UHGV virus genome: UHGV-0266300
Direction: 5' to 3' (one strand)
DNA: 41,552 nt
Origin: a virus
Shown here piece after piece: positions 33,001-36,000 of the stretch (position 1 is the stretch's first letter; each line of letters begins with the position of its first letter). The position numbers are program-made.

Positions 33001-36000
33001 ATCCCAAATCTCATTGCATTTTTGTACTAGTTAAAGGGTACGTAGAAAATTCAACGAGAGGAGGGGAGGGGGAGGAGTGCCCGTGTGTTAGTGCGAAGCA
33101 CTGGAACAGGCTTTTCCAACAGACGGGTACATAGGTTAGGTAGATCTCGATCTAAAGGGGGATACCCCTGAAAAAACGGCTGTACCAGAAAGCTAGTACA
33201 AGATGGATAAAAAGTATGAGTGAAGACCTGAAGCAAAATTTAATCGCTCTTCTGGAAGAGCAATTCATTCGCTCCGATGACAAAGTTGTTTTCGATTATG
33301 TGATGCAGAAAAAAATCAAGTCTCAGGGATACCACCTGCAACGCAATTTCAGCATCAGCATCAGCATCAGCGGTGGTCGTAAAGGGTTTATTGGTTGCCT
33401 GGTTACATCATCAGACGGCCAGCAGTGTGCCATTGAGGTCGATAAGAAGTCTCCCCGCAACCGTTCATTGATGAAGCTGGCTCAGCTACCTGAGGGGATG
33501 TCAGGTTTTGTCCTGCTCAGGGACGGTAAGCACCCTCTTCGATATAGCGAGAACGGAATTGACGTTATTCGTGCGACGAAATTTAAGTGAGTTGATTCGG
33601 AAGGGGGCTGGCAGCCTTTGGGGAGGCCACCAGCCATGTGAGGGGGAATCCATGAAAACCACATCACAAAATTATTATCTCATCAGCACGGGAGCTGCAC
33701 AATGGAGCTGACGATCACGCCGAATTTTGCACAGGAACGAGCGCTAAACATGTTGCGCCGTGACTGGAAGGCAAACGACACCTTCATGGTGTATTCGCCA
33801 ACAGGTAGCGGTAAAACGGGTCTGGCAGCCTTCATAGTTGCTGGTTTTGTCAGCCGTGGTATGCGCGCTCTGTTCTGTGTTCCGTACACCATCCTGATTG
33901 GTCAGACGGCTAATCGGTTCGTGCAGTATGGTTTACCTGGAGATGAAATCGGTTATATCTGGGCGGATCACCCGAACTACGATCCGGACCGGAAAATTCA
34001 GATTGCCAGCGCTGATACGCTTATTCGTCGTGTTTTTCCTGAAAATATCGATCTGCTGATTATCGACGAAGCGCACCTGCGTAAAAAACGCATCCTGAAG
34101 GATATCGAACGTCTGCGCGGCAAAGGCGTAAAGGTGATTGGCCTGTCGGGTACTCCGTTTTCCCCGTTCCTGGGCAAATACTATGACCGACTGATTAAAC
34201 CGACCACCATCGGCGAGTTAATCCAGCGTGGCGATCTGAGTAAATACGAATTTTACGCGCCAACTAAGCCGGATCTGAAAGGTGTTAAAACCACATCTTC
34301 GCTTGAGTACGGCCGCGATTACAACGAAACACAGCTGGCTGAAATCATGTGCGGCTCTACGCTGGTGGGCGACATTGTACAGAACTGGCTGGAGAATGGT
34401 CGGGATCTACCTACCATCGCTTTCTGCGTCAACGTAGCCCACGCCAATTACCTGACAATCCAGTTTAACCTGGCGGGTGTTAACGCTGAGGTAATGACCG
34501 CCGACACTCCGGTAGATGAGCGCCAGACCATCATTCACCGCTTTGAAACCGGTGCAACGAAAATCATCGTTAGTGTGGGCGTTCTGGTAGCCGGATTCGA
34601 TAGTGACGTTCGTTGCATCATCTACGCCAGGCCAACAAAAAGCGAAATTCGCTGGTTGCAGGCACTCGGGCGTGGGCTGCGCACCGCACCGGGTAAAGCG
34701 TCCTGCCTTATCTTCGATCACAGCGGCACCGTGCACCGTTTGGGTTATCCGGATTCAATCGAGTACGACGAGCTTCCCGGTAAGTCTGACGGCATGGAGG
34801 AAAGCGTGCGCCGGGCAGTTGAGGAACGGGCCGAAAAACTGCCACATGAATGCCCTCAATGCCACTACATGAAGCCAGCAGGCGTCTATGTTTGCCCGAA
34901 ATGTGGACACAAGCCGCTGCGAGGTGAAGACGTTGATACTGACACTAGCCGCAAACTTAATAAGCTGGGTAAAAATCAGCATCAGTCGACGAAGGCAGAG
35001 AAACAGTCCTGGTGGAGTCAGATCAAATTTTATCAGCGCCAGCGTGCTTCGCTGGGGCGTCCAGTCAGTGACGGATGGTGTGCTCACACTTTCCGGGAAA
35101 AGTTCGGCGAGTGGCCTGACGGACTGAGTAACTTTCCGATGGAAATTACCCCTGAGGTAAATAACTACATCAGACACAAACTGATCCGGTTTGCCAAAGG
35201 CCACCAGCGGGTTCAGAAGGTCACTGAAAACGCACAAACAACGATTGATTTATCTCAGGAACGTGATGAACGACGTGAGATACCGGCAGGCAGTGAGGCC
35301 TGGCGCATCATGCAGGCAAAGCACCAACTCCAGAAAATATAAACAGTCTGAGTCAGTAAGATGAAAACAGCAGATGCAGCGAAAGGCCGCTGGCCTGAAA
35401 TATTAGAGCACTTCGGTCTGCCGCCGATAACCGGAAAAAATCACTTCAAGGGTGAATGCCCGGTATGCGGTGCACGTGGCAAGTTCCGAATTGATGACCG
35501 CGACGGTGCAGGAACGTGGATCTGTGTATGTGGTAGTGGCGATGGTATGAAACTTGTCACCCTGACACAGGCGAAGCCATTTAACGAGATTTGTACCGAA
35601 ATAGACCGCCTGATCGGTAATGATTACCAACGGGTTAAAATCCCGGTAACCAGCAGCGCCACCAGCTTACGCAAACGGGTATTGAGCAAGTTTTCAAAAC
35701 TGGAGGCACTGCGTGGTACATCCGGCGCAGCGTATCTTAATTCTCGTGGAATATTCAGTCTTCCTGCTGAGGCGATCCGGTTCAATGCCAGGCAGAGACA
35801 CAACGGGAGTGTGTTCCAGTCTCTTTATTCACTTGCTACGGACGATAAAGGGGAGTTGTGCTATCTGCACCAGACTCTGCTTGATGGTGATAAAAAAGCA
35901 GATATCGGTAGCAGTGCAAAGCGCCTCAAATCCCTGCAGGAAGATAACTATTTGGATCACGCTCGTTCTGTAGCTATCCGCATGTTTCCTGTCGCCAGCA

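Follow-up and report, generated by a model that had tools for sequence, protein, structure and literature searches.

Recurrent length variation at an in-frame hexanucleotide repeat in a replication-module gene of an enterobacterial prophage

The viral genome UHGV-0266300, analysed here over its whole length of 41,552 nucleotides (nt) and referred to as the window, carries in its prophage replication module a gene (33216-33590, plus strand) encoding a protein of 124 amino acids (aa) that belongs to phrog_1347, and a short perfect tandem repeat lies inside this gene. The tract TCAGCATCAGCATCAGCATCAGC, read at 33349-33371 on the plus strand, is a perfect hexanucleotide microsatellite of 23 nt (TCAGCA, 3.8 copies), for which Tandem Repeats Finder returned a period of 6, 3.8 copies, 100% matches and a score of 46. 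The first-pass annotation had described AGCATC repeated 3.5 times at 33351-33371 and encoding SISISIS, which is the identical tract in codon register, and the sequence, the open reading frame (ORF) and Tandem Repeats Finder all agree with that description. Position 33351 is the first base of codon 46, and the tract is in frame and encodes S46-I-S-I-S-I-S52, with F45 before it and G53-G54 after it. The gene had also been placed upstream of a helicase, and it indeed lies directly before the gene of a superfamily 2 (SF2) DEAD/DEAH (ResIII) helicase (33702-35342, plus strand).

Within the window, the TCAGCA tract is the longest perfect tract with a period of 4-9 and the sole perfect array of its kind reported by Tandem Repeats Finder. 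When the window was simulated 2000 times with a second-order Markov model, period-6 tracts were at most 20 nt long and never reached 23 nt, and none of 500 simulations covering periods 4-9 contained a tract with at least 17 matched positions. The 23-nt tract is longer than the simulations give and is not a chance feature. The region 32900-33800, searched for repeats and inverted repeats, contains no AT-rich block, no iteron-like array and no other notable family of direct repeats. A second small tandem repeat, GTGGCTGTGGCTGCG (2.5 copies, period 15, 95% matches), is present far to the left at 8874-8911, and its Tandem Repeats Finder score of 69 is above the 46 of the TCAGCA tract.

Among related prophages the tract measures 11, 17, 23 or 29 nt, and the corresponding proteins have 120, 122, 124 and 126 aa, with the variants F-SIS-GG, F-SISIS-GG, F-SISISIS-GG and F-SISISISIS-GG, respectively. 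The comparison of repeat number across related prophages that the first-pass annotation had proposed thus yields four lengths and not an invariant one. Its expectation that the length would change in frame without switching the gene off also holds, as all alleles keep the frame and encode full-length proteins; since the unit is 6 nt long and in frame, phase variation is excluded. In complete Escherichia coli genomes, where the lengths of the coding sequence were taken from 38 close records, 363 nt occurred in 6 records, 369 nt in 19, 375 nt in 12 and 381 nt in a single record. DNA and protein alignments of representatives placed all length differences inside the tract, always as multiples of 6 nt. 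Pattern scans of IMG/VR and metagenome contigs added 29 further loci with 11-, 17- and 23-nt alleles, while a flank-pattern scan of a one-genome-per-species contig collection gave no match, the exact flanks being specific to this E. coli lineage.

The alleles also differ in purity. The window has a C at 33368 (plus strand), the third position of Ile51 (ATC), and most relatives have a T (ATT, synonymous), which interrupts the repeat. Six tract sequences were found across all fetched loci: at 11 nt an interrupted form, TCAGCATTAGC, and a pure one, TCAGCATCAGC; at 17 nt an interrupted form, TCAGCATCAGCATTAGC, which is the majority, and a pure one, TCAGCATCAGCATCAGC; and at 23 and 29 nt pure forms, with no interrupted form seen at either length. 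TCAGCATCAGCATTAGC accounts for 23 of the 33 listed rows, and alleles of more than 17 nt are without exception pure.

Exact-sequence look-ups in a collection of 15 billion proteins gave the number of contigs for each allele. The window protein itself (124 aa, P80; P0041) occurs in 205 contigs, and the other 124-aa forms in 545 contigs (L80; P0055) and one contig (K82; P0057). The 126-aa form was found in four contigs with L80 (P0054) and in one with P80 (P0056). At 122 aa, the form with D60 (P0043) is present in 998 contigs, and the forms with G60 in 27 (P0042) and, with K82 in addition, 69 (P0049). The 120-aa form occurs in 805 contigs with D60 (P0040) and in 138 with G60 (P0048). Because exact alleles recur in many independent contigs, assembly error is rejected, and because the common alleles are each present in tens to hundreds of assemblies, they must be inherited stably within lineages. 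The tract is thus polymorphic but does not show the hypermutability of a contingency locus.

These counts bear on the proposal that the differences are errors of sequencing or assembly, or that the tract is a DNA-level element such as a set of origin iterons. Repeats can be miscalled, and phage lambda carries its origin iterons inside a replication gene; however, the common alleles recur as exact proteins in tens to hundreds of contigs as well as in complete genomes, the differences are always whole 6-nt units, and such a unit is far shorter than known iterons, so that we regard this proposal as extremely unlikely. Iterons of the lambda O type, which consist of several sites of ~11-22 bp, usually beside an AT-rich region, were considered and rejected, the unit here being 6 nt and 32900-33800 containing no other notable direct repeats. 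A role of the tract in an RNA, a promoter or a terminator was likewise dropped after the Rfam scan gave no match close to the tract and scanning over 32400-33800 gave no promoter-like site and, inside the tract, no terminator-like site.

A neighbour-joining tree of 40 loci was built from ~890 nt of flanks. One clade of 11 pure-repeat sequences has only 3 variable flank sites in ~890 nt and contains all four lengths. The 25 interrupted 17-nt sequences, from Salmonella and E. coli, diverge in their flanks by up to 19.5% and have a single length; in one sister clade, whose flanks are identical, the interrupted allele has contracted once, from 17 to 11 nt. Across a 12.9-kb early region (window 25835-38722), E5 (29 nt) and Combat2C1 (23 nt) differ by one repeat unit and by nothing else, and N47 (17 nt) and EC9682 (23 nt) differ by one unit and three single-nucleotide polymorphisms (SNPs). 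N47 was considered for polarising the change between 17 and 23 nt and was dropped on account of these three SNPs. The 126-aa form exists on two backgrounds (P80 and L80), the 124-aa form on three (P80, L80 and K82) and the 120-aa form on two (D60 and G60), while the P80 background alone covers all four lengths, which implies at least five independent length changes.

The length changes are therefore recent and recurrent, and the interrupted 17-nt allele is the older, ancestral form. With a short unit repeated head to tail, changes by whole units and recurrence, the tract is a coding microsatellite, or in-frame variable-number tandem repeat (VNTR). The word "hypervariable" used in the first-pass annotation is too strong for it: four lengths were seen and no more, tens to hundreds of assemblies share each of the common ones, and the interrupted allele is fixed up to 19.5% divergence apart from the one contraction.

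All expansions lie within the lineage in which the synonymous ATT-to-ATC change at 33368 made the repeat pure. Instability correlates with repeat purity, a relation that is confounded with the G60 lineage described below, and it is an established principle that interruptions stabilise microsatellites (PMC4102424). In the mechanism that we propose, the synonymous change would have removed the interruption and purified the repeat, purity would raise the rate of slippage that an interruption suppresses, and misalignment of the strands between tandem units during replication would then add or remove units of 6 nt. We infer replication slippage from four features taken together, which are the changes by whole units, their recurrence, their concentration in pure tracts and the stability of the interrupted tract.

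What these changes may mean for the protein was considered on AlphaFold2 models built with the family alignment. The model of the window protein has a predicted local distance difference test (pLDDT) score of 85.7 and a predicted template modelling score (pTM) of 0.83, that of a 122-aa relative (P0004) has a pLDDT of 85.6, and each is a confidently modelled single domain. Two N-terminal helices are followed by three antiparallel strands, a helix and three further strands, and with its alpha-beta-beta-beta-alpha-beta core the 124-aa protein is predicted to have the PD-(D/E)XK, or restriction-endonuclease-like, fold. The values tabulated beside this fold result were 7.5 for Bax1, 7.4 for XisH (2okf), 7.2 for BamHI and for AF1548, 7.1 for NucS, 6.4 for SfsA and 5.6 for Hjc. 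Foldseek against viral models returned a phage phi191 protein first and then annotated PD-(D/E)XK nucleases. At the level of sequence, sub-threshold Pfam matches point to the MTES_1575 restriction-endonuclease domain in 19 of 31 family members, and also to NERD, NucS_C and TnsA; SfsA is a further sub-threshold nuclease hit of the sequence searches, and no match to the Pfam nuclease families was significant (best E 0.0019, below the cut-off) and a search of PDB chain sequences gave no significant match.

Codons 40-64 (33333-33407, plus strand) form a beta1-turn-beta2 hairpin in these models, and the repeat accounts for its distal beta1 end together with part of the loop at the tip. The window protein is modelled with beta1 at 40-48, a 7-residue loop at 49-55 and beta2 at 56-64 (tip pLDDT 72-81), and the 122-aa relative with beta1 at 40-49, a 3-residue turn (S-G-G) and beta2 at 53-62 (tip pLDDT 91), so that the extra Ser-Ile appears as a larger tip loop. 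The first-pass annotation had suggested a linker; both models are a single compact domain in which residues 46-52 form the end of a strand and a hairpin turn, and since there is no second domain, the segment is not an interdomain linker. Conservation across the family is lowest in the segment aligned to the repeat (SISIS, AISLS, TLNLS, TVRLK, TVDMG), which keeps the alternating pattern typical of an exposed strand. According to the models, each unit gained or lost adds or removes one Ser-Ile at the distal beta1 and the hairpin tip, a place which is probably exposed to solvent, and steps of two residues would preserve the alternation of polar and apolar side chains. With a variable and probably exposed position and the alternation preserved, the length changes are presumably tolerated and near-neutral; this tolerance would follow from the place at the tip together with the abundance of all four alleles. 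The alleles would then act as neither a switch nor a tuned linker. Taken as a whole, a small coding microsatellite in a prophage replication-module gene, driven by slippage and near-neutral in effect, is in our judgement the likely description of the locus.

The same hairpin could instead be under diversifying selection for its length, through contacts of the arm with DNA, with the neighbouring helicase or primase, or with some factor of the host or of a defence system. Arms that project from nuclease-like cores, as this hairpin does, often bind substrate; in addition, independent length changes recur on several backgrounds and several alleles reach high frequency (205-998 contigs). However, there are only four lengths, exactly 122 aa is the rule for most family members from Salmonella, Klebsiella, Yersinia and Edwardsiella, and the variation follows repeat purity, which is a mutational property, so adaptive selection on hairpin length appears quite unlikely. 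In its most specific form, the Ser-Ile repeat would be a mutational tuning knob for the interaction of the arm with its substrate or with the helicase or primase as partner, with alleles selected in different E. coli lineages. We consider this very unlikely; if it were true, such a knob would alter prophage replication or induction.

A further question is raised by residue 60. The family conserves E14, D60, E74 and D76, together with R81, R83, S84 and K87, and K77 is variable. Codons 74-76 (33435-33443, plus strand) encode an invariant E-V-D, a candidate (D/E)-x-(K/D/E) motif on beta3 (strand 70-76), and D60 is the candidate first catalytic acid. Judged from sequence, the conserved residues, with putative catalytic roles, would be compatible with a D...E-x-D version of the PD-(D/E)XK site; this arrangement presumably resembles D94/E111/E113 of BamHI. 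Codon 60 of the window (33393-33395, plus strand) is GGT (Gly) in place of the GAT (Asp) of nearly all members, which turns the FIDCL of the family into FIGCL. The entire pure-repeat clade, including the window, carries Gly60, and nearly all other members carry Asp60. The G60 lineage is common, with hundreds of contigs, and all expanded repeats belong to it. Should D60 be catalytic, the protein with the expanded alleles may be inactive, and relaxed constraint could then help these alleles to persist.

Taken further, this argument would make the gene a decaying one, in which Asp60 has become Gly, the protein is possibly inactive and changes of length go unselected. D60 is near-invariant in the family and is Gly in the window lineage, tracts of more than 17 nt occur on the G60 background alone, and the window helicase also has a 1-nt deletion at its 3' end. 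Against decay, the 17-to-11 contraction also occurs on the intact D60 background, where it is common (805 contigs), the G60 alleles are without stops or frameshifts and show almost no other substitutions, the interrupted G60 allele of L016 remains at 17 nt, and the catalytic role of D60 is itself putative. We therefore regard decay of the gene as an unlikely source of the variation.

Several points weigh against slippage of a near-neutral microsatellite as well. Unequal recombination between units would yield the same alleles as slippage. Classical hypermutable loci are far longer than this tract of 2-5 units, so slippage events may be rare on laboratory time scales. All expansions sit in the lineage that lacks the near-invariant Asp60, so relaxed constraint, and not purity, could explain the persistence of the longer alleles; purity and loss of D60 are partly separable, since L025 is pure with D60 and L016 interrupted with G60, both at 17 nt. 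The neutrality of the alleles is inferred, and the confidence of the models is lower exactly at the loop.

Known systems provide useful comparisons for the repeat. Coding VNTR loci of enterobacterial genomes with 6-bp in-frame units are used for multiple-locus VNTR analysis (MLVA) typing. Like them, the TCAGCA tract has a short perfect unit that is a multiple of three, differs by whole units between close relatives and preserves the frame, and its pattern is consistent with slippage, with a stable interrupted allele; unlike them, it has ~2-5 units and four alleles and lies in a prophage replication-module gene. No description of the tract as a typing locus was found in a literature search. Contingency loci share with it the mutation by gain and loss of units, at a rate that depends on purity; however, the present tract has a 6-nt in-frame unit without on/off effect, is much shorter, and its alleles mark lineages of hundreds of assemblies. 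The tract is thus a fresh instance of the known short in-frame coding VNTR, with gain and loss of units after purification.

For the protein, the comparison is with PD-(D/E)XK nucleases such as Bax1, XisH, BamHI-like enzymes, NucS and Hjc. Unlike these, which have D...(D/E)-x-K, the family has the motif D...E-x-D, and the window allele has Gly for the first Asp. DUF1064 (PF06356), the family of phage phiH ORF25, was predicted to be PD-(D/E)XK (PMC1189080) and likewise comprises small phage proteins with the same predicted fold. UniRef labels two distant relatives (P0033 and P0034) as DUF1064. Membership in DUF1064 was rejected, as none of 31 family members matches PF06356 even at E values up to 10, so the label agrees on the fold and not on the family.

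The repeat-bearing ORF sits in the early-right operon of a lambdoid prophage, where it is preceded by a cI/LexA-like repressor gene (31692-32423, minus strand). The gene order is repressor, two small ORFs of phrog_4749 and phrog_852, the 124-aa ORF, helicase, primase and a phrog_6204 protein, and the zinc-ribbon/Toprim primase (35361-36329, plus strand) completes the replication module. The 124-aa protein matches the hidden Markov model of phrog_1347 over residues 1-124 (E 2e-61), a group for which PHROG gives the function as unknown, and a search of Pfam and NCBIfam assigned it to no family. The protein family is narrow: 39 matches were obtained, every named source is an Enterobacterales prophage, nearly all members are exactly 122 aa long, and this length is kept by most members across Salmonella, Klebsiella, Yersinia and Edwardsiella. 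The gene is present in 51 of 5426 complete E. coli genomes (~1%).

In all relatives fetched, which include E. coli prophages, phage phi467, Salmonella phage Fels-1 (STM0899) and two Klebsiella phages, the helicase gene lies directly 3' of the repeat-bearing gene. For STM0899, the Fels-1 orthologue, the literature search found only an expression study. The orthologue of Klebsiella phage KPP5665-2 (L010; locus 172-669) is labelled "helicase protein" and has its start extended upstream (498 nt); the label has probably been carried over from the neighbouring gene.

A gap of ~250 nt (32968-33215) separates the phrog_852 ORF from the 124-aa ORF and holds only minus-strand ORFs of 43-64 aa, none of them convincing. 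A purine-rich tract, GAGGAGGGGAGGGGGAGGAG, lies inside it at 33058-33077, and imperfect long-range inverted repeats pair 33022-33041 with 33182-33201 and 32913-32925 with 33162-33174. The gap could be a regulatory or origin-related region. At the 3' end of the helicase gene (35329-35333), the window has four A residues and four close relatives have five. With the resulting frameshift, the helicase ends in ...HQLQKI* (546 aa) and not in ...HQLQKNINSLSQ* (552 aa), and 18 nt lie between its stop and the primase start, which are adjacent in the relatives with five A residues. Either genuine variation or a sequencing error in the homopolymer could account for this difference.

The window as a whole is only partly related to the prophages compared above. 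Only 25835-40282 matches the prophage next to yecE/cmoA in EC9682, N47, E5 and Combat2C1, with an identity of ~99.8% over 25835-38722 and ~98.9% over 38711-40282, and positions 1-25834 and 40283-41552 are unmatched. None of the complete E. coli genomes covers at least 80% of window 16600-41552. From this partial match and the lack of a genome covering 16600-41552 it follows that the prophage is a mosaic with a different left arm, and it possibly has a different integration site. Just left of where the similarity starts, Rfam reports a full-length match to sRNA-Xcc1 (RF02221) at 24764-24852 (minus strand), which scores 69.3 bits where the gathering score is 53. The related prophages carry, downstream of the Q antiterminator, genes annotated as a scabin-related ADP-ribosyltransferase and a subtilase-family AB5 toxin B subunit, whose coordinates, carried over from L042/L045, transfer to ~37760-39050 of the window. 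According to these annotations, the two genes would form a toxin cargo of the ArtAB/pertussis-like type, situated between Q and the genes for lysis.

The locus offers a small, clean case of a microsatellite "born" in a bacterial virus, although it matters little for biology at large. One synonymous ATT-to-ATC change purified a repeat of two to three units, and four alleles then arose amid near-invariant flanks, while the interrupted form, which contracted to 11 nt in one case, has otherwise not changed in length across genera. For the unannotated phrog_1347, which always stands ahead of the helicase-primase pair in Fels-1-like prophages, the models now propose a PD-(D/E)XK-like fold. For sub-typing of this toxin-carrying prophage in E. 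coli lineages of the extra-intestinal and Shiga-toxigenic kinds, the tract could be a practical marker.

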